A DNA stretch of 64,000 nt from Escherichia phage vB_EcoM_G2285. Below the pieces are notes generated by a model. It was given only the letters and a program-made list of their open reading frames with translations. It made no database searches and was not told the origin of the DNA. Positions within the stretch are counted from its first letter, which is position 1. Every line of letters begins with the position of its first letter. The translations under genes and the position numbers were made by a program. The stretch lies in sequence record MK327933.1; one strand, given 5' to 3'. Of this stretch, positions 3,664 through 49,277 are shown in pieces.

Positions 3664-5483
3664 TAGGACATCCATTCTTTACGAAGTTCTGAATCATCAC
3701 CCAACAACATTTCAAAGAGTTCTTTCCAATTTTCAGGAAGTTTAACTACGTCGTACACAGGGTTCTGAATCATTTCACGATACTCTGACTTTTCAAGGGA
3801 GCCTAATCCCTTGATGTATCGAATACTATGCTTAGGCAGTGTATCTTTAACTTCTTCATACTCAGCTACAGTATAAAACCATTTTTGAGTTTTGCCAATT
3901 TGTGCAATAATTACAGGTGTTTTAACAAAGCGAATACGTCCTTGTTCAAACAATTCGGGCCAATTACTAAAGAAAGCAAGCAAAGACGGATAAATACTTC
4001 CAAGACCGTCATGATCGGCATCGGTCATAATTGCAATATTACGATAGTTCGTATTCTCTGCCTTTTCACCAAGAATAAGACCTGTGATAGCACAGATATC
4101 AAAGAGCTCTTTGTTCTTCATCATATCAGCATATGACATACCCCAGCTATTCATCACCTTACCGCGTAATGGGAATCCGCCGTGTAGTTCACGGTCACGA
4201 ACATCAATGAGATAACCAATTGCCGAATCACCTTCTGTTAAGAACAATGTCGTATCTGCATCTTTACCACATTGGTTAGCTTTAATATGCTTATGAACCT
4301 TAGCTTTAGTTGCCTTTTTAGCTGCTTTAGTTTCTGCAGCCTTTTCTGCCGCCAATTTACGAGCTAATGCGGCTTCAATTATAGGCATTAAAACTGCTTC
4401 AGAATTCAAAATATTTTTTGCCAATTTTTTGGTATCTAATTTAATATGCGTCCGAATTTCGCCATAAGGACTTGTTAAACGCTCTTTGGTTTGGGAATCA
4501 AAACGAAGGTTCTTCATTCCACGAACGAACATTAAGAGAGTGAGACATTCCTTGATGCGCGCTTTAGTCACGTCGATTTTATATTTGCGTTTAATAGCCG
4601 GAATTAATTCTTCGCAAATGTCGTCCATCACACATTCAATGTGATGACCACCATTTTTAGTATGGATGTTATTCACATAAGTTAAATGACGGAAGCCATC
4701 TGGTGACCGACTAATGGCAATAGAGCATCCGTCTTGTTCTTGAATGATGGTCTCTTCATCAAATTGTTTAGCAAACTTCTTAAAGTTACCTTGAATCTTT
4801 TTGCCATTAAATTTAAATTCAATACCAGGATAAACGACTGCCAATGTTTGGAGCCGGTCTATAGTAATATCTTGGTATATTTTTTCAAATTGATTCATTT
4901 CAAAATGAGAGAAATCAGGAATAAACTCGACCTTAGTCCCGTTGTTTTTAGACGGCTTAGATTTCCAAGAAATATTATCAGCATTATTAGAACAATTAAC
5001 TGTCAATTCATTTTTACCATCTGAAGTAGTGCCAACAAAAGAGACAGAAAAAATATTTGTTAATGAAGAACCGACACCGTTTTGTCCACCCGTAACACGT
5101 TCTTTGTCGTCACCAAAGTTGCCACCGGCTTTTGTACGTGTCCACGCCGCAACTGGTCCTGGAATTTCTTCTCCTTCAGGAGTAATAACTGTTTCTTGAG
5201 GAATACCTCGACCATTATCTTCAACAGTCACTTTATTAGAATTTAAATCAATACTAACGGAAATTTTATTAGCATATTTGAAATTGGTTCGAATAGCTTC
5301 GTCTACCGAGTTGTCAATAATTTCATCAATTAATTTGAGAACACCTGCAACATATTTAACCTTTTTAAATTCACCAAATAGGAAACGTTCTTGTTCTTCA
5401 TTGGCAACACTTCCAATATACATGCCAGGACGCTTCAAACAATGCTCTTTATCAGATAGCATTTCAATTTTATTATCAATCAT
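3663..5483 (-). CDS. 39: DNA topoisomerase II large subunit (gene 39 with gene 60 fused, GyrB-like ATPase)
   Basis: HCLKRPGMYIGS GyrB-type motif; ~606 aa continuous ORF; start set at ATG 5483 (track start 5498 is TTG). Confidence 0.85.
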   Translation of the reverse strand: MIDNKIEMLSDKEHCLKRPGMYIGSVANEEQERFLFGEFKKVKYVAGVLKLIDEIIDNSVDEAIRTNFKYANKISVSIDLNSNKVTVEDNGRGIPQETVITPEGEEIPGPVAAWTRTKAGGNFGDDKERVTGGQNGVGSSLTNIFSVSFVGTTSDGKNELTVNCSNNADNISWKSKPSKNNGTKVEFIPDFSHFEMNQFEKIYQDITIDRLQTLAVVYPGIEFKFNGKKIQGNFKKFAKQFDEETIIQEQDGCSIAISRSPDGFRHLTYVNNIHTKNGGHHIECVMDDICEELIPAIKRKYKIDVTKARIKECLTLLMFVRGMKNLRFDSQTKERLTSPYGEIRTHIKLDTKKLAKNILNSEAVLMPIIEAALARKLAAEKAAETKAAKKATKAKVHKHIKANQCGKDADTTLFLTEGDSAIGYLIDVRDRELHGGFPLRGKVMNSWGMSYADMMKNKELFDICAITGLILGEKAENTNYRNIAIMTDADHDGLGSIYPSLLAFFSNWPELFEQGRIRFVKTPVIIAQIGKTQKWFYTVAEYEEVKDTLPKHSIRYIKGLGSLEKSEYREMIQNPVYDVVKLPENWKELFEMLLGDDSELRKEWMS

Positions 5484-6159
5484 TAGATTTTCTCTCAAAT
5501 TGCATGACTATATTTTTGTATGAACCTTCCGGAAATCCACGTTTAATGCTTTCTTTAGCAAATTTCCCAACCTTTGGTTTATCCAATTCTAACCATAATT
5601 TATATAAAGCAGATTCATATTCCCATACAGGACTTTTACGATTTTTAAGCCCACACTTTATAAGCGCTTCCTTTGTATGTTTCTTATTATAAAATGGATT
5701 GTTTTTGCCACTCATTGCTTTAGAATGTTCCGGGCGCTTAATTCCATACATCGGATTAAGATTGCCTTTCTTGATAATGGATTGTAGTTCAATAGTTTCT
5801 TCAGAGTGATTGTGTCCATAAAATGGATTTAACTCTTTTGAAACATCCATACCAAAACACCCATCGACTGTGGCATAAGACATGTTGAAAAATTTTTCAG
5901 ATTTAACCACATTATGCAATTTCTGGTAATACAACTCACAAAACGTCGCTTCTTCCCGTGTATCAAATTCGCCAATAATACATGAATCAAATAAATGAGG
6001 ATTATCTTTTATCTCTTTATCATAAATTTGTTTATATTTTTTCGACTTTACCGTACCATGATAGTAATTGTTTGTATGTTTATCAAGATAAGTAGACCCT
6101 ATATAAAACGGTGGCAACTTATCGCCTGTGTATATTGTTAAGTATGTTATGTATTTCAT
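5476..6159 (-). CDS. GIY-YIG homing endonuclease (Seg-like)
   Basis: N-terminal YLTIYTGDKLPPFYIGST GIY-YIG motif; NPxYG (NUMOD-like) repeats; C-terminal DNA-binding region. Confidence 0.7.
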   Translation of the reverse strand: MKYITYLTIYTGDKLPPFYIGSTYLDKHTNNYYHGTVKSKKYKQIYDKEIKDNPHLFDSCIIGEFDTREEATFCELYYQKLHNVVKSEKFFNMSYATVDGCFGMDVSKELNPFYGHNHSEETIELQSIIKKGNLNPMYGIKRPEHSKAMSGKNNPFYNKKHTKEALIKCGLKNRKSPVWEYESALYKLWLELDKPKVGKFAKESIKRGFPEGSYKNIVMQFERKSND

Positions 6160-14126: not shown

Positions 14127-14419
14127 TCAGAATAACTTGACCCAGAATCACCAGGCCAAGACGATACGTATGAATGATTATAACTTGAAGAGCTTGAAGC
14201 ATTCGCCTGGTTTGTTTTTAGACGAACAACTTCTTCCATCATTCCATCACCAATATATTCCCAACTTTTTTCATGTGTATCAGGAATAGGCATCATCCCT
14301 TCGCCTGGATTAACAGCAAACAACTTCTTCAGCATCGTAAGCATTAATTGTTCCTCGAACAAAACGAACACCACCATCATCCCAACGGATTTCGGCATTA
14401 AATTTGACGTCTTCACCAT
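14096..14419 (-). CDS. hypothetical protein (true start probably internal)
   Basis: 107 aa track ORF overlaps next ORF by 110 nt; Ser-rich C-terminus. Confidence 0.3.
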   Translation of the reverse strand: MVKTSNLMPKSVGMMVVFVLFEEQLMLTMLKKLFAVNPGEGMMPIPDTHEKSWEYIGDGMMEEVVRLKTNQANASSSSSYNHSYVSSWPGDSGSSYSDCGSSSGSCE

Positions 14420-26972: not shown

Positions 26973-27374
26973 TTATAGATTCGGTTTATACGATTTAAAT
27001 GTTTCGAATTCGCCTTTATTCATAAGAGCTTTGAATTCGTCAGGACGCATAGCTTTGTCGTCGATAATCCAATCATATACTGGTTTATGTGTTAGCAAAT
27101 TATGGTACTTCAAACCAATGTTTTCCAAGTTCTGAATCAGACTTGGGAGAATGTCAATTGCTATACGACCAGGACCTACTGACTTCATACCGCGAGCAGT
27201 GTAAAGCGTTATGGTATGCCCTGCATCATACAGGGCATTAATGGCAGACACCATTTCGACGTCAGGTTTGAAGTTCACGTAATCACGATTGTTATTCCAC
27301 TCTGTTATACAATCATCGACATCAAAACAAAGATTAAGCATGTTTTCTACACGGTGCATTAGATTCGTTCCCAT
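26973..27374 (-). CDS. HAD-superfamily phosphatase
   Basis: 133 aa; motif I LCFDVDDCIT (DxDx[TV]) near N-terminus; alternative start 27359 overlaps upstream stop. Confidence 0.6.
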   Translation of the reverse strand: MGTNLMHRVENMLNLCFDVDDCITEWNNNRDYVNFKPDVEMVSAINALYDAGHTITLYTARGMKSVGPGRIAIDILPSLIQNLENIGLKYHNLLTHKPVYDWIIDDKAMRPDEFKALMNKGEFETFKSYKPNL

Positions 27375-29044
27375 TGATGAGTGATATCGCCACCGATTGG
27401 ACGATAGGAAACACCAGTTTCTTTATCAGTTAGTACCCATTTACCAGGATTTTTTGTAATCAGAGTAGCCGTTACAGGTTCTGCTACGTCATAACTAATA
27501 GAGCCGTCCTGAAGTACACGGCCCATATTACGTAATTGCTTAGTCAGAAGTTCCATACCTTTATAATATGCGGCTACCGCTTTAAGTGGATTATTCTTAA
27601 AATAACCACCTAATGCAATCCAGATAATTGCCACTGCCAAATGATGATACTCGTTAAATGAACTCATCTTTCCATATTTGTAAACTAATGGATTGATGTT
27701 AATAGTCACATTACAAGTTGTTTCATCAATAGTAAACTGGCCCCAGGTCGGATTAGCGTTGAATTCATCATAACCTGAAACAGCATAAAGCACTTTAGCT
27801 TCATCATACAATTTTGGCCCGTAAATCTTGGTTTCGCCAAAATATCCACGAGGGTCGATAAACTTGACTTCGCCGTTATCAGTAATCATAGTATTACTGA
27901 AGTTCGGGTCACCATGAATAACAGAGTACTGTCCCTGAGAACGGTTATGATAGCGAATAAGATGTTCTAAAGCTTGTTTCAGCATTGGCTTCAGACGTCC
28001 AATCTTAGTGTAGTTCACATGTGTGATTTTACCAAATGAATCAATCAATGGTTGAATGCTTTCACAACGATCAATAACTTTCGTATAGAATTCTTTAGTG
28101 AAATCACGACGAACAGTTTCAGGACTTACAAAATAAGTGTCTGTGCTGAATTTCAGTGCATCTAAAATTGCATCAACAATTTGTGGACGAGCAAGACTTG
28201 ATTTGGATTTAATATATTCAAATGCCGGCTTACCTTTAATGCGTTCCATTTCAAAGTTATTTTCATTAACAGAAACTAACTGAGGAACTGAATCTGATTT
28301 CACTTTAAGATACCATGAAATCTCATCTTTCTGAAGAGCTCGACCTTGTTCGGTTAATGCGAATTTAGTTACAGTTTCTTCACCAATTTCAACTGCATTA
28401 AAACTACGATTAAGTTCACGAACTTCATGGGCCTTTTCAAGTTTAGGCATATCACCAAGGTCGATGATATTCATAAGCTCTGATTTATTGAATGCGCCGC
28501 TGTAAAGGAATTCTACGAAATCACGTCCTTTGCAGTATTCATGAATTTCCTCATCAGTAGAACCCATGTAGAATTCCCAGTCTTTGAACTGATAAATTCC
28601 TACAACATTACCACCTGTTGAACCTACGTTAGTGATATTTTCACCGTCGAAATTATATCGACATTCGTCACCCTTAACATAGATTGCGTTAACATTCCAA
28701 GACCATGAACCAAAATCTGGAATAATATCACACCAGTTAACAATTACGTTATGGCCGTCTAAATCTTTGTGTAATTTAGCAAGAGCATAAGCAGAACCAT
28801 ACGCTTCATCAACTGTACGAATAGTCACATTGAACCCTTCTTGCTCACAATAAGCTCGAACAGTTTCAGCAAATTTTGAATGAACTACTACAATAATTTC
28901 ATCTGCGCCAAGGTCAGAATAAATTGTATACAAATTGCTCAGAATAGTGTCTTGTTTATAGTTAACAAGCACCTTGGGAATATGATGCGTTATTGGATAT
29001 AAACGAGTTGCCAGACCAGCACCAAGAATAACAGCTTTTTTCAT
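27359..29044 (-). CDS. bifunctional sugar-phosphate nucleotidyltransferase / APH-like kinase
   Basis: 561 aa; N-terminal ILGAGLATRL NTP-transferase motif; C-terminal VIHGDPNFSN..IDPRG kinase catalytic-loop-like motif. Confidence 0.6.
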   Translation of the reverse strand: MKKAVILGAGLATRLYPITHHIPKVLVNYKQDTILSNLYTIYSDLGADEIIVVVHSKFAETVRAYCEQEGFNVTIRTVDEAYGSAYALAKLHKDLDGHNVIVNWCDIIPDFGSWSWNVNAIYVKGDECRYNFDGENITNVGSTGGNVVGIYQFKDWEFYMGSTDEEIHEYCKGRDFVEFLYSGAFNKSELMNIIDLGDMPKLEKAHEVRELNRSFNAVEIGEETVTKFALTEQGRALQKDEISWYLKVKSDSVPQLVSVNENNFEMERIKGKPAFEYIKSKSSLARPQIVDAILDALKFSTDTYFVSPETVRRDFTKEFYTKVIDRCESIQPLIDSFGKITHVNYTKIGRLKPMLKQALEHLIRYHNRSQGQYSVIHGDPNFSNTMITDNGEVKFIDPRGYFGETKIYGPKLYDEAKVLYAVSGYDEFNANPTWGQFTIDETTCNVTININPLVYKYGKMSSFNEYHHLAVAIIWIALGGYFKNNPLKAVAAYYKGMELLTKQLRNMGRVLQDGSISYDVAEPVTATLITKNPGKWVLTDKETGVSYRPIGGDITHQWERI

Positions 29045-29085
29045 GTTGAAGTCCTCATTGGTAAGTAGGAGTATTGTACACTATT

Positions 29086-29229
29086 CTAGTTAAAGCATTC
29101 ATACTTTGCTTGTAGTCCAATCATAATCCATCCAATCACAAGTGTTGGAATCATTACCGGAGCCGTTAAGCTCCAGTAGATAGTCATGAAAAGCATCAAT
29201 AGTAAAAGTCCTATTGTTATTGCTTTCAT
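29086..29229 (-). CDS. 47 aa hydrophobic membrane peptide, absent from ORF track
   Basis: hand translation MKAITIGLLLLMLFMTIYWSLTAPVMIPTLVIGWIMIGLQAKYECFN; ATGA overlap with upstream stop. Confidence 0.4.
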   Translation of the reverse strand: MKAITIGLLLLMLFMTIYWSLTAPVMIPTLVIGWIMIGLQAKYECFN

Positions 29230-29861
29230 TGTTCGCCTCGTAACATGGCACCTAGTGCACCGCCTGGATGGAACTTAAGGAAGTCATTAGAGGTAAATCC
29301 ACGTTCAGACGAAAGGTTGATAGCAAACGTATCGATAAGCGCTAACAACAATGTAGTTGACATCGTCGGAGCTAAAGAGTTCTCGTCAACTTCTACCGCG
29401 ATACCGGTACAGAACGTATAATCAAAAAGAGCTTCGTATTCTTGTGGAATGTCTGGGTTACAATGCAACAGAATCTGTTTGACGTTCGGACGAATCATTT
29501 TAAGATGCTTAGCCACGCCTATCATTTCTTCAGTCTTACCAGAACGACTGATGTGAACTAATACATCATTAGGTGCAATAAATCCTGCATCACCGTGAGA
29601 ATAATGCCCAGTGTTCAAGTACATACTCGGGATACCGAGTGAAGCAAATGTCTCAGAAGCTTTAGTTGCGATATTAGCATTCTTACCAACACCTGTAATA
29701 ATTACTCGGCTTTCATAATTACTAAGTCCAGGGCGTCGAAGAGTTTCTAGAATAGCATTATAACGAGCAGGGTTTTGACTAATTACTTCGGCCATAGTGG
29801 CCAAAGAAGAAGCTTGTTTTATGATTGCGTCAATAGCGATAGTAATAGGAGTAGTTTTCAT
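29226..29861 (-). CDS. SIS-domain sugar-phosphate isomerase (arabinose-5-phosphate isomerase-like)
   Basis: 211 aa; ITGVGKNANIATK, HGDAGFI, ISRSGKTEE, APTMSTT, FHPGGALG match KdsD/GutQ SIS-domain blocks. Confidence 0.7.
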   Translation of the reverse strand: MKTTPITIAIDAIIKQASSLATMAEVISQNPARYNAILETLRRPGLSNYESRVIITGVGKNANIATKASETFASLGIPSMYLNTGHYSHGDAGFIAPNDVLVHISRSGKTEEMIGVAKHLKMIRPNVKQILLHCNPDIPQEYEALFDYTFCTGIAVEVDENSLAPTMSTTLLLALIDTFAINLSSERGFTSNDFLKFHPGGALGAMLRGEQ

Positions 29862-29901: not shown

Positions 29902-30905
29902 TCAAAAATCGAACATATCGAACAGAGATGCTTTCTTCTCGTAATCGAGTTTCGCTGCTGATGTGAATCCTTCAAGTGGTTTAATAAATGTCTTCTCAAG
30001 GAGAACAGTGTAGTCCATCCAATGAAGTACATCGTCTTTAATTAAATCTGTGATTTCAGTACCAGAAGGCCATGCGATACATTTATCACCGAATGGGTTT
30101 CCTTCACGTAAAGGCAGAACATATACTTTTTCACCTTCTACAACTTGCGGTGCATCGATATTACCTTTGATAGCCCGGTTATACGTCAGAATTCCACGAA
30201 TATGGAACGGGCATTTAGGACCAGGGAATCCACCGACGTCATATTTAGCAATGTTATTCGCAGAAGATACCGACGCGATGCTAATATAATTCAATTGACG
30301 GAATTCTTTTTCAAACTCTTTAAAATATTCTTGTAATGATTCTTCGCCTTCCTGAAGCATACGACGAATACATTCCTTAAGAGCTTTCTGTACTGCTTTA
30401 GGAGTCGAAGATTTCTGAGTCTCTAGACCCATGATTTTAAGCTTAGGTTCAGCGTATCTGGTTCCTTCCATATCCCACACGTTTAATGCATAACGTTTCT
30501 TACCAGTCCAGAATCCACCAATACCTTTAGAACCAAGCGGAGGACCAGCAATAGCTTCTCGGTCCATGAACATCAAATGTTGTTTATTGTTCATGTATTC
30601 ACACATTTCACGGAAACCTCTATCAATAGCTGGTTCCATACGTTCACGTGCAAACTTATCTAAGAAGTCTACCCAATGGTTGGTATCACGGAATTTAGAT
30701 TCACCAACCTTATCAATAATTTTATCTGCAGATACGTAAATGGAGTCTGTATCACCATAAAGAACGAAAGCTTCACCTTCTGTACCACAAACTTCATTCA
30801 GATATTCATTAACTTTACGTTCAATCCACTGTAAAGCCATTTGACCAAATGTTGTGATTGCAGTAGCATTACGCAAATCGTAATAACGGAACCAAACGTT
30901 ACCCA
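29902..30905 (-). CDS. 43: DNA polymerase gp43, cistron B exon 2 (palm/thumb, YGDTDS)
   Basis: translation from GNVWFRYYDLRNATAIT through YGDTDS to ..FDMFDF matches recalled RB69/T4 gp43 C-terminus; 5' boundary set at inferred splice site. Confidence 0.85.
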
Positions 30906-31137
30906 CATTATGTTCGACTGAGGTCGTTAATCTCAGCCCGGAATTATATCCAGCTGCATGTCGCCATGCAGAGCAGACTATATCATCATCTTTATAGATG
31001 CTATGCGCTTCCACCCACTTGGGCGTACTCCTTTCGGATAGTCGTTGCACGTTCCTCATAGAGGCTTCGCTCAGGATTGTCTACTAGAGATGTCCCCTGA
31101 ATTCACATAGTTTAAAGTGCGCCGAGTTATTTGGTTA
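30906..31137 (-). ncRNA. group I intron (td/nrdD-like, ORF-less, 232 nt) in gene 43
   Basis: interrupts motif B codons (..LYGAL | GNVWF..); core elements CTCTAGTAGACAATCC and GATATAGTCTGCTCTGCATGGCGACATGCAGC; starts TAA after exon U, ends ..CATAATG. Confidence 0.75.
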
Positions 31138-31306
31138 ACGCACCATACAGACTATTAATAAGCAATTTACGGTTAATCTGAGCCGTATTACCTGCTACTT
31201 CAGCCAATTCGCAGTTTTTAAGATGTTGTTCTAAATCAGCTTTGCTTAAGGACTTGAGATAAGAAATTTCATCTTGTGAAAAGTCTTGAGTGTATGTTAA
31301 ATTCAT
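31138..31306 (-). CDS. 43: DNA polymerase gp43, cistron B exon 1 (motif B)
   Basis: ATG overlapping HEG stop (TAATG); encodes MNLTYTQDF..NTAQINRKLLINSLYGA, the polymerase K-x3-NSxYG region. Confidence 0.7.
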
Positions 31307-32127
31307 TATATTTTATTCCTACAGTTATCAAAGTGCCAACGTTTCATACCAGATAATATACCTTCTTTACCACAGTGCGGACACGTTGCTTTAATCTCTT
31401 TAGCTTTAGCCCAGTATTCTTTCTTAGAGTCTGAAAGGGCCTTATTATGGGCTTCCGAATTGGTTTTGCCTAATCTTGTTTTAACTATATTAGGATTCTC
31501 TGAAATTCTTTGCTTCATCCTAGAAGACTGTTTAGAACGTTGTTCTTTCGACCAGCCATCAGATAAAACTTTCTTTTGTTCTTCAGTTTTGGTTGTACCG
31601 AAGAGATGGGATTTATTTTTAGAATAGTATTCTTTGAGACCTATAGATTGTTTTAACGAAGTTTCAGCAGAATGCTTTGTTCCTATTTTATTTTTACTTG
31701 CTACAGCCCAATTGGCTGCTGCTATGGCTTTATACTTTTCAGGATTTTTGGCTATAGTGATTTTAATAGAATCTGAAACCTTTTTAGCAATCTCTTGGGA
31801 CTTCATAGGATTTGGTAGATTTAAAGAATTTACATAATCCCAACCGCCTTTACCACCAGGATTAAGATTATATGTATCATTTCTTTTTACAAAATCTTTA
31901 TCTACAATTTTAGCTTCAAGGGCATAAGCTTCATCTTCATTATCGAATACTTCCAAAATGGTCTTTTGGAGATTTTCTATACCGTATTTTTCAACGGCTG
32001 CTTTAACAACAGGTCCAGAACCGCGGTAAATATCGTTTTGATTAGACTCATCACACTTATGAACACCTACATAAATTTTACCATTAACGACATTAGTAAT
32101 TTGGTAAACAGTATAAACAGTTTTCAT
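31306..32127 (-). CDS. GIY-YIG homing endonuclease inserted within gene 43
   Basis: VYQITNVVNGKIYVGV GIY-YIG motif; C-terminal CPHCG..MKRWHFDNC zinc finger; start set at ATG with SD GGAGG. Confidence 0.75.
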   Translation of the reverse strand: MKTVYTVYQITNVVNGKIYVGVHKCDESNQNDIYRGSGPVVKAAVEKYGIENLQKTILEVFDNEDEAYALEAKIVDKDFVKRNDTYNLNPGGKGGWDYVNSLNLPNPMKSQEIAKKVSDSIKITIAKNPEKYKAIAAANWAVASKNKIGTKHSAETSLKQSIGLKEYYSKNKSHLFGTTKTEEQKKVLSDGWSKEQRSKQSSRMKQRISENPNIVKTRLGKTNSEAHNKALSDSKKEYWAKAKEIKATCPHCGKEGILSGMKRWHFDNCRNKI

Positions 32128-32153
32128 AATATCCTCCATTAGTTGATAAGACT

Positions 32154-32183
32154 ATAATACCACATCCTTGTGGTATTGTAAAC
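32154..32183 (-). promoter_or_regulatory. early-type promoter for the intragenic endonuclease
   Basis: minus GTTTAC-N18-TATTAT then AGTCTTATCAACTAATGGAGGATATTATG. Confidence 0.45.
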
Positions 32184-33703
32184 TATTTTGAAGCCAAAAT
32201 CTCTTTAATTATTTCAGCATTTCGCTGTGCAGCCAACATGTAGCGCTTATGTTCTTTACGCTGCAAGAATACCTTAGTGATTTCTGTTGGAATCACACCA
32301 TCACGGTCTTTATAATACATCATGCCGTTAGGAGAGCAACTGTACACATCTGAAGGACGTTCGGCGATTGCGTTAATATACTCATGCAGTGGAGCTACTT
32401 TAAACGTTCCTGCTATTGTTTCCGGGCTAATATTCACTTGGCGAATAATACTTGGATACAGAGATGTAAGGTCGAAACTCATTACATATTTGTATCGATT
32501 TGGAATAGGTTCCTTAACAAAAGCGCCAGGATAAGGTTGAACCGGGTGAGAACGACCTTGTGGAATCACCTTGTTCTGCTCTTTAAGGCTATTAAAAATA
32601 ATAGCATCCCATGTTTTAATTGGGCTAAACACAGATTGAATCTGTATCTTAGCATAATAACCCATGTCCAAGCTCAAGTTGATGAACTGACGCTTAGCAT
32701 CAATTTGCAATACACGATACACGTCGATAATGTTATAAGAAATATATCGTTGGTGATTGCTTTCACGAAGCTTAGAAATAGGGCCGTCATATTTCAGTTT
32801 ACCAACGTTCAATTCAAATTCTGAAATGTAATCCAGAGAATATGACGGTTGATTGGTAAAAGAGAATTTTTTGTAAAGGTCAATGTAATCAAGAACAGAG
32901 ATACCGAACAATGTAATGATTTCACGAGAACCATACATGTTTTCGATAACTTTAACACGAGTTTTACGATGTGGTGACAACCGTTTTGCTGTGGATTCGC
33001 CAAAAATATTCTTGATTCGGTTATACACATATGGAATATCAAATGACTCAACGTTCCATCCAGTCAAAATGACAGGAGTTTTCTGTTGCCAGAAGTTGAG
33101 ATATTCCATCAACAATTCTTTTTCGTTATCGAACGGCATATAAATGATTTTATCGATAATTTCAGATGGAACTTCATCACCGCCTTGTTCTTGAAGCTTA
33201 GCAGCGATTTCAATAGACCATTCTTCTACATTACCATACGGAGAATTCAATAGATCAAATACATAGAACCTGTCGTCAATTGAGTCATAATGGGTGATAG
33301 CATCAATCGGATGTTTTGCTTGTGACGGCTCAGGGAACCCATCCGGAGATGTTACTTCGATGTCGAAGTTAGCCACACGAATTTTTGTATGGTCGTATTT
33401 GATTTCATAGTTATAAGTGTCAGACAAATACGCCAATTTGAAATCGTCCATGCCAAGTGCTTCAAGTCCGATATCTTCCATGCGTTTAATCCATTGGGAG
33501 GCATCACGCATATTAGCGAACAGCTTACGAGTACACGGCTTACCGTAGATATCGAAATATTTCGTAGCCTGACTTTCTGGACAATGAGCAAACAGTGATG
33601 GTTTATATTCTACTTCACGAGTACGTTCACGGCCATTAGAATCGATGTAACGTTCAAAAATTGAATCACCAATCTGTTCAACCGTTAAGTAAAATTCTTT
33701 CAT
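32183..33703 (-). CDS. 43: DNA polymerase gp43, cistron A (N-terminal and 3'-5' exonuclease domains, motif A)
   Basis: 506 aa; MKEFYLTVEQIGDSIFERYID..FDIEV..YNIIDV..DLTSLYPSII matches recalled RB69 gp43 N-terminal half; ends at in-frame stop. Confidence 0.9.
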   Translation of the reverse strand: MKEFYLTVEQIGDSIFERYIDSNGRERTREVEYKPSLFAHCPESQATKYFDIYGKPCTRKLFANMRDASQWIKRMEDIGLEALGMDDFKLAYLSDTYNYEIKYDHTKIRVANFDIEVTSPDGFPEPSQAKHPIDAITHYDSIDDRFYVFDLLNSPYGNVEEWSIEIAAKLQEQGGDEVPSEIIDKIIYMPFDNEKELLMEYLNFWQQKTPVILTGWNVESFDIPYVYNRIKNIFGESTAKRLSPHRKTRVKVIENMYGSREIITLFGISVLDYIDLYKKFSFTNQPSYSLDYISEFELNVGKLKYDGPISKLRESNHQRYISYNIIDVYRVLQIDAKRQFINLSLDMGYYAKIQIQSVFSPIKTWDAIIFNSLKEQNKVIPQGRSHPVQPYPGAFVKEPIPNRYKYVMSFDLTSLYPSIIRQVNISPETIAGTFKVAPLHEYINAIAERPSDVYSCSPNGMMYYKDRDGVIPTEITKVFLQRKEHKRYMLAAQRNAEIIKEILASK

Positions 33704-47720: not shown

Positions 47721-48491
47721 TCATGCTCGTTTATATGAAACAACAAAATTTGGATAGTCCATAGATATGCAACGTTCTTTTATAGTGCTAGGATGAAAAT
47801 TTAGCGCTTTAGCTGCTTCTATATAAGACGTATACTTAATACCGTCAACAACCACATATTCAGGAACTTTATGAATAGTAGTCTTAATACTCAAAACAAG
47901 AGGATGAGTTTCGACTTCACTTTCAGTGCAATTTAAATATTCCGCTGCTTTTTTAAAACTTCTAAAAGTTTTATTTTTAAGCTTTATCGATACTTGTTTT
48001 TTACTTTTTCGACTATTGATATTATTTTGCACATGTTCCTTAGATCTTCCGTTTTTAGCATAATATTCAGCTACAGAAGATTTTATATTGTTTTTATGAG
48101 ATTCGGATAACACTTTACCCTTATGAGCATCTCTTAATTTTTGAATATGTTCTTCAGTATCCGGATGCTTATAAAACTTTTTACCGCCTATGGATTTATT
48201 TAAACATTTTTTGCTATAAAAATATTTACGTATGACCTCTTCTTCATGTTTTAATGCATCTTTATAACTATCAAATGTTTTTAAAATTATCCATTTAGTA
48301 GGTGTATCAGTTTTTAAGCGTTCATTTATATACTTAGATGACGTTGTGTAAGTTTTCCAGTTTGTGGGCTTGTTTTTAATTGTTCTAAATTTTTTATAAC
48401 CGATATAAATGTCGCCATTAGAAAACTTAACTAAGTATGTAAATGCGTCTTTATCTTTTATTTTAGTACAACGTCTTTTTATCCATTTCAT
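47721..48491 (-). CDS. intron-encoded GIY-YIG homing endonuclease (I-TevII-like)
   Basis: 256 aa; YLVKFSNGDIYIGYKK GIY-YIG motif; lies in 3' part of the nrdD intron. Confidence 0.8.
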   Translation of the reverse strand: MKWIKRRCTKIKDKDAFTYLVKFSNGDIYIGYKKFRTIKNKPTNWKTYTTSSKYINERLKTDTPTKWIILKTFDSYKDALKHEEEVIRKYFYSKKCLNKSIGGKKFYKHPDTEEHIQKLRDAHKGKVLSESHKNNIKSSVAEYYAKNGRSKEHVQNNINSRKSKKQVSIKLKNKTFRSFKKAAEYLNCTESEVETHPLVLSIKTTIHKVPEYVVVDGIKYTSYIEAAKALNFHPSTIKERCISMDYPNFVVSYKRA

Positions 48492-48520
48492 TGTTTCACC
48501 TCGTATTCATAAGATAATCT

Positions 48521-48528
48521 TATTTATA
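48521..48528 (-). promoter_or_regulatory. T4-type late promoter TATAAATA inside intron
   Basis: about 30 nt upstream of endonuclease start, followed by SD GAGGTG. Confidence 0.5.
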
Positions 48529-48739
48529 CAAGATGACTGCTGCATGTCGCCATGCAGATTAGACTATATCTTCATCTTTCGATGCCGGCCGTTTCGAATA
48601 GCATTAGCTTCTATTCTACACCGCTACATTCATCACGGTTAGTCGTTAGGCATTTAGTTCAAAAGAACATTTAGCACGGGATTGTCTACTAGAGAGGTTC
48701 CCCGTTTAGACCGGTTTTACATGAGCCTGAATTAAATTA

Positions 48740-49277
48740 ACTCATACGCCTGGAATGCATCGTATACGTCTTTTTCTGTTTTAGATTGAGCATAATTCAA
48801 CGCATCAGCGATTTGCCATTTTTCTGCATCTTCAATATGTTTAGCATATGTGCGTTTAACATAAGGAGAAAGTACTTTATCTACATTCGCAAATGTAGTT
48901 CCGCCATACTGGTGTGAAGCAACTTGCGCGGTAATTTGTGCCATAATTGCAGTAGCAACACCGATTGATTTAGGAGTTTCAATCTGTGCATTACCTAGCT
49001 TAAATCCGTTTTCAAGCATTCCTTTTAAATCTACTAAACAACAATTAGTAAATGGAAGAGCAGGGGAATAATCAATATCGTGCACGTGAATAATTCCGCT
49101 TTCATGCGCTTTCATAATAAAAGACGGGACTATATTTTTGGCAATGTGTTTAGACACAATACCAGCCATAAGGTCCCGTTGAGTTGGAAAAACACGAGAA
49201 TCTTTATTAGCATTCTCGTTTAAAAGGTCTTTATTAGTTTTATGAATCAATCCTTCAATTTCTTTTTCAATTGTCAT
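48740..49277 (-). CDS. nrdD: anaerobic ribonucleotide reductase NrdD, exon 1
   Basis: MTIEKEIEGLIHKTNKDLL.. matches recalled T4 NrdD N-terminus; exon1+exon2 = 605 codons. Confidence 0.85.

Follow-up and report, generated by a model that had tools for sequence, protein, structure and literature searches.

A compact group I intron next to a free-standing GIY-YIG endonuclease gene in the split DNA polymerase gene of an RB69-type Escherichia phage

Introduction

The closest described counterpart of the locus studied here is that of Aeromonas salmonicida phage 25. According to what two reviews say of it, its intron 25.g43B has no endonuclease gene of its own and was predicted to use a free-standing one (Petrov, Ratnayaka & Karam, 2010, J Mol Biol 395:457, cited in PMC2993671 and PMC2988022). 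The gene concerned encodes a GIY-YIG endonuclease and is named seg43(25)/helc25 in the passages of these reviews dealing with phage 25 (PMC2993671; PMC2988022). The relevant passages of the same reviews also attribute collaborative or trans homing to the cyanophage psbA intron with F-CphI (Zeng, Bonocora & Shub, 2009), and mobilization of the T4 nrdB intron to mobE (Wilson & Edgell, 2009; both cited in PMC2988022 and PMC2993671). Both of these pairs resemble the present locus in that an intron lacking an endonuclease has a neighboring endonuclease presumed to cleave intron-less alleles at the insertion site or close to it; they differ from it in that here, where cleavage is predicted, the host gene also consists of two cistrons, with the endonuclease gene as the dividing element.

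In phage T4, gene 39/60 reportedly contains a MobA cassette with a 50-nt translational bypass. The gene 60 bypass element sits in an endonuclease cassette built on the same plan (bioRxiv 10.1101/2022.08.31.505936). Common to this cassette and the one analyzed here are a split essential gene, a C-terminal tail of the first ORF, an endonuclease gene and a new head of the second ORF re-supplying residues; in both of them, a noncoding insert interrupts the presumed target site and the foreign DNA ends at the insert. The interrupter in the present case is, however, a putatively self-splicing intron and not a bypass element, whereas the metagenomic relatives of the cassette carry hop-like inserts of 5–11 nt in place of the intron.

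The DNA analyzed, called the window below, consists of 64,000 nt of the genome of Escherichia phage vB_EcoM_G2285 (MK327933.1). While the combination of an endonuclease and an intron in gene 43 is already known from Aeromonas phage 25, its occurrence in an RB69-like phage is new.

The Split Polymerase Gene and its Endonuclease

Gene 43 is located on the minus strand and is divided at the tip of the fingers into two cistrons which jointly span the full enzyme. Gene 43A (33703-32183, minus strand) encodes 506 aa comprising the exonuclease domain and the start of the polymerase domain, as identified with Pfam, and corresponds to residues 1-506 of the uninterrupted gp43 of phage JS09 (98% identity); the spliced gp43B corresponds to residues 514-903 (93% identity). 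Exon 1 of 43B (31138-31306, minus strand) consists of 56 codons plus one base and ends in ...CTG TAT GGT GCG T, and exon 2 extends over 29902-30905 (minus strand). Directly 3' of gene 43 (26973-29861, minus strand), two genes match RB69 ORF052c-055c in JS09: they code for a nucleotidyl-transferase-domain protein of 561 aa (27359-29044, minus strand) and a SIS-domain protein of 211 aa (29226-29861, minus strand), and we assume that they may be RB69-specific sugar-nucleotide genes tied to the arabinosyl-hmC modification of the DNA.

An untranslated spacer (32128-32182, minus strand) separates 43A from the endonuclease gene. It contains a 9-bp hairpin (AAUACCACA-AGGA-UGUGGUAUU, 32177-32156) just 5' of the ribosome-binding site (RBS) of the endonuclease gene, and a comparable hairpin is present upstream of seg43(25) in phage 25 (PMC2988022). 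A sigma-70-like match in the same spacer (10/12 positions) is a consensus match only and was not relied upon. No T4 late promoter (TATAAATA) was found near the gene 43 endonuclease gene; the window contains six matches to this sequence, which is no more than expected by chance, and one of them, in the nrdD intron (48528-48521), lies upstream of the ORF of that intron.

The free-standing, Seg-like GIY-YIG endonuclease gene is located at 31306-32127 (minus strand). Its ATG at 32127 is preceded by a GGAGG 7 nt upstream and gives a product of 273 aa, while the ATG at 32139 selected by the ORF finder overlaps this RBS and the homologues align from the second Met: the product is therefore likely to have 273 rather than 277 aa. 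The TAA stop codon overlaps the ATG of 43B (TAATG), and 169 bp separate the end of the gene from the downstream insertion site of the intron, which itself has no ORF. The Pfam scores of the protein fell slightly short of the curated cutoffs, with 23.7 bits for PF19835 (SegE_GIY-YIG, cutoff 25) and 21.2 bits for PF01541 (GIY-YIG, cutoff 22.6), and its homologues have precomputed matches to PF01541, PF19835, and NUMOD3. Residues Y8, Y19/G21, E71, and N87 are invariant in the alignment of 17 sequences of the family, and the C-terminus carries a CPHC...WHFxxC motif. The identity with the GIY-YIG genes located between the polymerase cistrons of the Aeromonas phages phiAS4, Aes508, and 25 amounts to 41-44%, the homologues in phages 25 and phiAS4 being annotated as GIY-YIG. 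At more than 60% identity, no copy of the endonuclease was found in 50,697 phage genomes.

Identity and Boundaries of the Intron

A preliminary description of the locus had recognized a compact, ORF-less group I intron, without giving its strand or its host gene, and named a covariance-model search as a check. This search did find the intron: in a scan of the whole window, the Rfam model RF00028 (gathering score 50 bits) gave a match of 83.6 bits (E 8.5e-20) on the minus strand at 31170-30954. The ends of the match are offset from the true intron ends, since P1 is misplaced in exon 1 and the 3' end is set at P9. The intron itself runs from 31137 to 30906 (minus strand, 232 nt), and these boundaries, which are exact to the base, are fixed by the coding sequence on both sides: the ORF 31306-31127 terminates in ...INSLYGALTK*, and the ORF 31059-29902 includes ...VGNVWFRYYDLRNATAITTFGQ. 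A match to the rhinovirus CRE model at 14169-14257 (minus strand; 31.5 bits as against a gathering score of 45; E 0.029) was also returned by Rfam and is almost certainly due to chance.

When 31138 is joined to 30905, the sequence becomes GCG T|TG GGT AAC and the 43B frame is open over 390 codons. The spliced product reads ...INSLYGAL|GNVWFRYYDLRNA... and is identical at the junction to the RB69-type gp43; the stretch ...LYGALGNVWFRYYD... in the spliced frame is RB69-type gp43 sequence and the motif LYGAL-GNVWFRYYD is restored. The intron, which begins with a U (31137), thus interrupts, in the second of the two PolB cistrons, the codon for the Leu of motif B (LYGA-L-GN). The exon U preceding it (31138) and its terminal G (30906), both of which had been proposed, are borne out by the restored frame. 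In the unspliced RNA, the 43B frame runs into a UAA stop codon formed by intron bases 9-11. The ORF 29902-31059 combines exon 2 with 51 spurious in-frame codons reaching into the intron. This extension (MRNVQRLSERS...) had rightly been regarded as noncoding: it lies inside the intron and the gp43 match to JS09 starts only at exon 2.

RNA Structure and Covariation

Helices P1 to P10 were drawn by hand on the intron sequence (all coordinates refer to the minus strand). The IGS, or 3' strand of P1, lies at 31122-31117 and the 5' strand of P10 at 31127-31123. Structure and covariation both support P3 (31110-31104/31007-31001), P4 (31100-31095/31076-31071), P5 (31090-31087/31083-31080), P6 (31070-31068/31051-31049), P6a (31064-31061/31057-31054), P8 (31000-30996/30991-30987), P9 with its GCGA loop (30971-30965/30960-30954), P9.1 (30953-30949/30942-30938), and P9.2 (30937-30932/30922-30917). 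P7 (31043-31038/30981-30976) was identified from the structure and is invariant in 11/11 introns; in P7.1 (31037-31036/31031-31030, CC-GAAA-GG) only one-sided changes occur, whereas four of the five pairs of P7.2 (31025-31021/31016-31012, CGCCC-AAGU-GGGUG) show compensatory changes. There is no P2 helix. The three strings which the preliminary description had quoted have a single match each in the window, always on its minus strand: GGGGACATCTCTAGTAGACAATCC at 31097-31074, GATATAGTC...TTCCGGG at 30984-30937, and GAACATAATG at 30915-30906. The first of them had been mistaken for the P3/P7 core and is the P4-P5-P4' hairpin, the true P3 being CUAUGUG/CGCAUAG and the true P7 GACUAU/AUAGUC.

For the assessment of covariation, 11 introns were aligned with MAFFT: five gene 43 introns, two td introns without an ORF, and a further four found in T7-like, Vibrio, and roseophage genomes. 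Over the twelve core helices from P3 to P9.2, 94.3% of the cells were found to be paired, versus 33-43% when the 3' partners were slid by 1-3 columns. Compensatory changes on both sides occurred in 34 of the 60 pairs, and the observed pairing and covariation values were not matched in any of 500 shuffles. The minimum-free-energy fold of the intron and its flanks (-73.6 kcal/mol, z = -1.95) was only marginally better than those of the shuffles and did not recover the native pseudoknotted fold; since the latter was not reproduced, this approach was dropped as evidence for the intron.

The guide sequence ACUCG|GCGCAC fits the exons on both sides: GCGCAC forms P1 with the end of exon 1, GUGCGU (31143-31138), including a U-G pair at the splice site, and ACUCG pairs in P10 with the first bases of exon 2, UGGGU (30905-30901). 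The helices of the catalytic core, including the P3/P7 pseudoknot, are all intact, as is the terminal G at 30906. On comparing five other gene 43 introns, we observed that the P1 and P10 pairings track synonymous codon changes in the exons. In the intron of the metagenomic contig L005, P1 (GUGCGU/GCGCAC) is the same as in the window and P10 is UGGGA/UUCCG; the corresponding pairings are GGAGCUU/GAGCUCC and UAGGU/ACUUG in phiAS4, and GUGCGU/GCGCAC and UAGGA/UCCUA in contig L010. This tracking is the strongest in-silico evidence of selection for splicing in the gene 43 introns, and nothing else would account for it. All in all, the intron is an ORF-less group I intron with the td/nrdD type of structure, which is very probably functional and would splice.

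Relationship to the td and nrdD Introns

In introns of the IA2 subgroup (the td/nrdB/sunY type), two additional helices, P7.1 and P7.2, separate the 5' strand of P7 from the 3' strand of P3. Both helices occupy this position in the present intron, which is the IA-type arrangement. The intron can be described as IA2-like in view of these two helices, an assignment supported by its 79-80% identity to T-even td introns. Its core architecture, the P7.1/P7.2 helices, the P7 strand GAUAUAGUC, the P9 hairpin CUGCAUGG(C/U)GACAUGCAG, and the 3' end GAACAUAAUG are the same as in the T4 td, nrdD (sunY), and nrdB introns, from which it differs in its host gene and in having no internal endonuclease ORF. 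With the ORF-less td introns, it shares the whole P9-P9.2 tail, including GAACAUAAUG, but td has a P2 and the gene 43 intron does not. The nrdD intron of the window, with which it had been placed in one family, has in common with it the sequence of the P4-P5 hairpin, the P7 strand, an identical P9 hairpin, and the absence of P2, and shows 70% identity over 187 aligned columns. The td/nrdD type is therefore correct, but the closest kin among T-even introns are the ORF-less td introns and not nrdD.

The nrdD intron mentioned in the preliminary description is real (core 48741-48540, minus strand). It scored 70.6 bits with Rfam when the region was scanned alone, yet the whole-window Rfam scans missed it at both thresholds and found only the gene 43 intron, which means that fast filters lose real matches. 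Its ORF (48491-47721, minus strand) encodes a GIY-YIG/NUMOD1 endonuclease of 256 aa, and the whole element (47721-48741) is 99.9% identical to that of many T-even phages.

Co-occurrence of the Endonuclease and the Interrupted Site

Two samples of loci were compared. The first one, in which the loci were picked via homologues of the endonuclease, comprised 14 distinct lineages, and the site LYGA(L/I)G|N was interrupted in all 14 of them, by an intron in five cases and by a short insert in nine. The second one consisted of 80 metagenomic loci picked by the polymerase motif alone. An ORF of the endonuclease family was present directly upstream in three of these, all three of which were interrupted, versus none of the 77 loci without the endonuclease; the probability of this coincidence arising by chance is 1/C(80,3), i.e., ~1.2e-5. 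In all, 17/17 lineages found with this endonuclease upstream of 43B have an interrupting intron or short insert at the site. A scan of IMG/VR with a profile of the endonuclease mostly yielded unrelated Seg-like genes located elsewhere, and only 5 of the 80 loci obtained in this way contained the polymerase site. The presence of the endonuclease goes with the interruption of the site, as is to be expected if the uninterrupted site is the target and the interruption confers self-immunity.

Origin and Presumed Mobility of the Cassette

The foreign cassette extends over ~1.3 kb (30901..32200, minus strand) and replaces 207 bp of the RB69/JS09-type gene 43. It comprises the 43A tail, the spacer, the endonuclease gene, the 43B head, the intron, and the first exon-2 bases required for P10. 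Based on the BLAST breakpoints, the flanks are 97.2% identical to those of the Mosigvirus JS09 up to 32201 and again from 30903, so that the foreign block ends at the 3' splice site of the intron. The codon comparison indicates that the donor-type synonymous codons for P1 and P10 (GCG TTG GGT, as compared with GCA CTT GGA in JS09) arrived with the cassette, which is covered by none of the 50,697 phage records searched. The order of the elements (43A, hairpin spacer, GIY-YIG gene, 43B exon 1, ORF-less intron, exon 2) is the same as in phage 25, phiAS4, and the Aes phages, and the insertion site (GGU GCG U | intron | UG GGU) is identical to the nucleotide in these phages, where the introns are homologous to that of the window at 76-78% identity and the endonucleases at 41-44%. 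The backbone, in contrast to that of phage 25, is of the E. coli RB69/Mosigvirus type and not that of an Aeromonas phage, and the intron measures 232 nt, as against 347 nt in phage 25, which has a large P6 extension, and 278 nt in phiAS4.

The explanation which we favor, with a probability of roughly 80%, is that the intron is functional and is mobilized by the neighboring free-standing endonuclease. Exogenous guanosine bound in P7 would attack the 5' splice site at the U-G wobble of P1; exon-2 UGGGU would be aligned on ACUCG by P10, and the freed exon 1 would attack after the terminal G at 30906, giving an mRNA from which a 390-aa gp43B working with the 506-aa gp43A could be produced. The free-standing GIY-YIG endonuclease most likely cuts the uninterrupted gene 43 near LYGALGN, and repair from the donor genome would copy the endonuclease gene and the intron together by collaborative (trans) homing. 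The intron may also confer immunity on the donor, since it breaks up the target site. Mobilization by the neighboring endonuclease is most likely in view of the phage 25 precedent, the sharp boundaries of the cassette, and the two comparative samples.

The intron also occurs at the same site in Escherichia phage PSD2002 (Dhakavirus, OK335775.1; 4350-4579 of locus L001), which is the sole one among the 50,697 phage records to carry it. The two introns are 96.5% identical, whereas the exons are only ~80% identical, which shows recent movement of the intron and hence a recent lateral transfer between two T-even genera. In PSD2002, where the record shows two "DNA polymerase" CDS and no intron, the polymerase is unsplit and the endonuclease gene is missing, and the two elements are therefore separable. 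This would fit the idea that they are independent passengers, the endonuclease homing alone on some other target and the intron having arrived separately by reverse splicing or recombination. The endonuclease and the intron are both present in the metagenomic contig L005 as well, and the fact that the endonuclease there is just 63% identical (aa) to that of the window, as compared with 89% for the intron, is in line with separate histories. Independent passengers would not, however, be expected to give the pattern observed in the two samples, where all the lineages with the endonuclease are interrupted and 77/77 loci without it are uninterrupted; both elements are contained in a single foreign block ending at the 3' splice site, and the phage 25 homologue is predicted or suspected, in the parts of the reviews which deal with it, to mobilize its intron (PMC2988022; PMC2993671). 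We therefore regard independent arrival as improbable.

The preliminary description correctly located the endonuclease upstream, outside the intron, but implied that it had formerly resided inside it. This history has its models in the T4 td, nrdD, and nrdB introns, which have internal endonuclease ORFs, as does the nrdD intron of the window. None of the gene 43 introns examined, however, contains an endonuclease ORF or a remnant of one; all the relatives of the gene lie between 43A and 43B, including those in lineages without any intron, and the published course of "collaborative homing" runs in the opposite direction, a free-standing endonuclease being later captured by an intron (PMC2988022). 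An endonuclease that moved out of this intron is thus very unlikely. That the intron is dead and the polymerase made as three polypeptides (43A, an exon-1 peptide of 59 aa, and a product initiated at the intron's ATG at 31059) is hardly credible: although the in-frame ATG-initiated ORF 29902-31059 does exist and a polymerase in two pieces is already tolerated, the core helices, U-G pair, terminal G, and guide are intact and co-varying, motif B, which is conserved, would be broken in two, and the 51-codon extension coincides with conserved RNA helices, JS09 gp43 being matched by 43B only from exon 2 onward.

Another intron was observed at the identical gene 43 site in contigs L010 (3988-4251) and L011. 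The core of the L010 intron is nrdD-like (P7.1/P7.2 region CCGUGAUGAGUGUAGCGGUGUAG), unlike that of the window intron, and its guide fits the same exons, which suggests that intron replacement or core swapping may have occurred. The 43A gene of L010 appears to be further broken by an extra ORF of 274 aa.

Hop-Like Inserts in the Intron-Less Relatives

In T4-like metagenomic contigs which bear a homologue of the endonuclease and lack the intron, a break occurs in the 43B frame, one codon beyond the intron site in the 3' direction. The frame stops right after the Gly/Ala of YGAxG and resumes 5-11 nt further on at a conserved Asn. The inserts (5-11 nt) all have the form of a Gly/Ala codon, a stop, 0-5 nt and a second Gly/Ala codon matching the first, next to which comes the conserved Asn codon. 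The sequence is GCC TAG ATAA GCT AAC in L008 (4930-4946) and L009 (3471-3487), GCC TGA ATAA GCT AAT in L015, GGT TAA GTTA GGT AAT in L012 (~3935) and L041 (~480), GGT TAA TT GGA AAT in L013, and GCG TGA CCCGG GCT AAC in L017 (~3930); the inserts are located at ~3940 in L015 and L016 and at ~3947 in L013, L014, and L033. The shortest junctions are GGT TA GGT AAC in L067 (~3319), L104, and L111, and GGT TA GGC AAT in L070 (~3316). In two lineages the frame is kept, with GGA TAG TTT GGC AAT in L046 (~3322) and GGT TAG GGA AAT in L133, which would amount to a natural "stop-hop"; the inserts of L104, L111, and L133 lie about 21 nt after the start of the NSxYGA motif. In every case, the stop directly follows the first codon, and the codon preceding the resume point agrees with the stopped codon in its first two bases. 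The resumed ORFs are 315-338 codons long.

A simple +1 or -1 frameshift cannot work in L008 and L015, because stops keep the target frame shut all the way to the landing codon. Re-initiation was rejected in the absence of any start codon in the resumed frame ahead of the conserved residues. Assembly errors were likewise discarded: L008 and L009 are identical although they come from independent projects, and many clusters of short ORFs were obtained in a protein search. In this search, carried out with 44-aa exon-1 peptides, 258 clusters were retrieved, and among the 120 listed, ~110 were 44-48 aa long and ended in ...YGAxG. As regards cultured phages with hop-type inserts, the matches listed included only uninterrupted cyanophage polymerases.

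With their take-off and landing signature, as in T4 gene 60, the inserts look like short programmed translational hops. No description of hop-type bypassing in gene 43 was found in the literature searched, and natural in-frame stop-hops were not known at the time of a 2016 review (PMC5009743). The idea that the endonuclease imposes a need for immunity, which is met interchangeably by an intron or by a hop insert decodable only by a short ribosomal hop in at least 12 uncultured T4-like lineages, is one towards which we lean only slightly. In L015 and L016, Pfam matches to intein-splicing domains were also observed in the 43B region downstream of the hop-type insert (4079-5698), and a single polymerase gene may in these contigs combine an endonuclease split, a hop insert, and an intein.

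Implications

As far as annotation is concerned, the ORF 29902-31059 of the window needs correction, and the two "DNA polymerase" CDS of PSD2002 are exons of one gene. The three-part cassette of the Aeromonas phage polymerase gene is also present in an RB69-type phage, in the form of a sharply bounded 1.3-kb block. The strict coincidence between the endonuclease and the interruption makes the idea that interruption equals immunity directly testable. If the reading proposed for the short inserts is true, they would be natural short-distance counterparts, not described in the literature searched, of the T4 gene 60 bypassing, and the intron and the bypass element would be functional equivalents in endonuclease cassettes. 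The hop-type inserts are thus candidate natural translational hops in an essential gene, and may matter more than the intron of the window.
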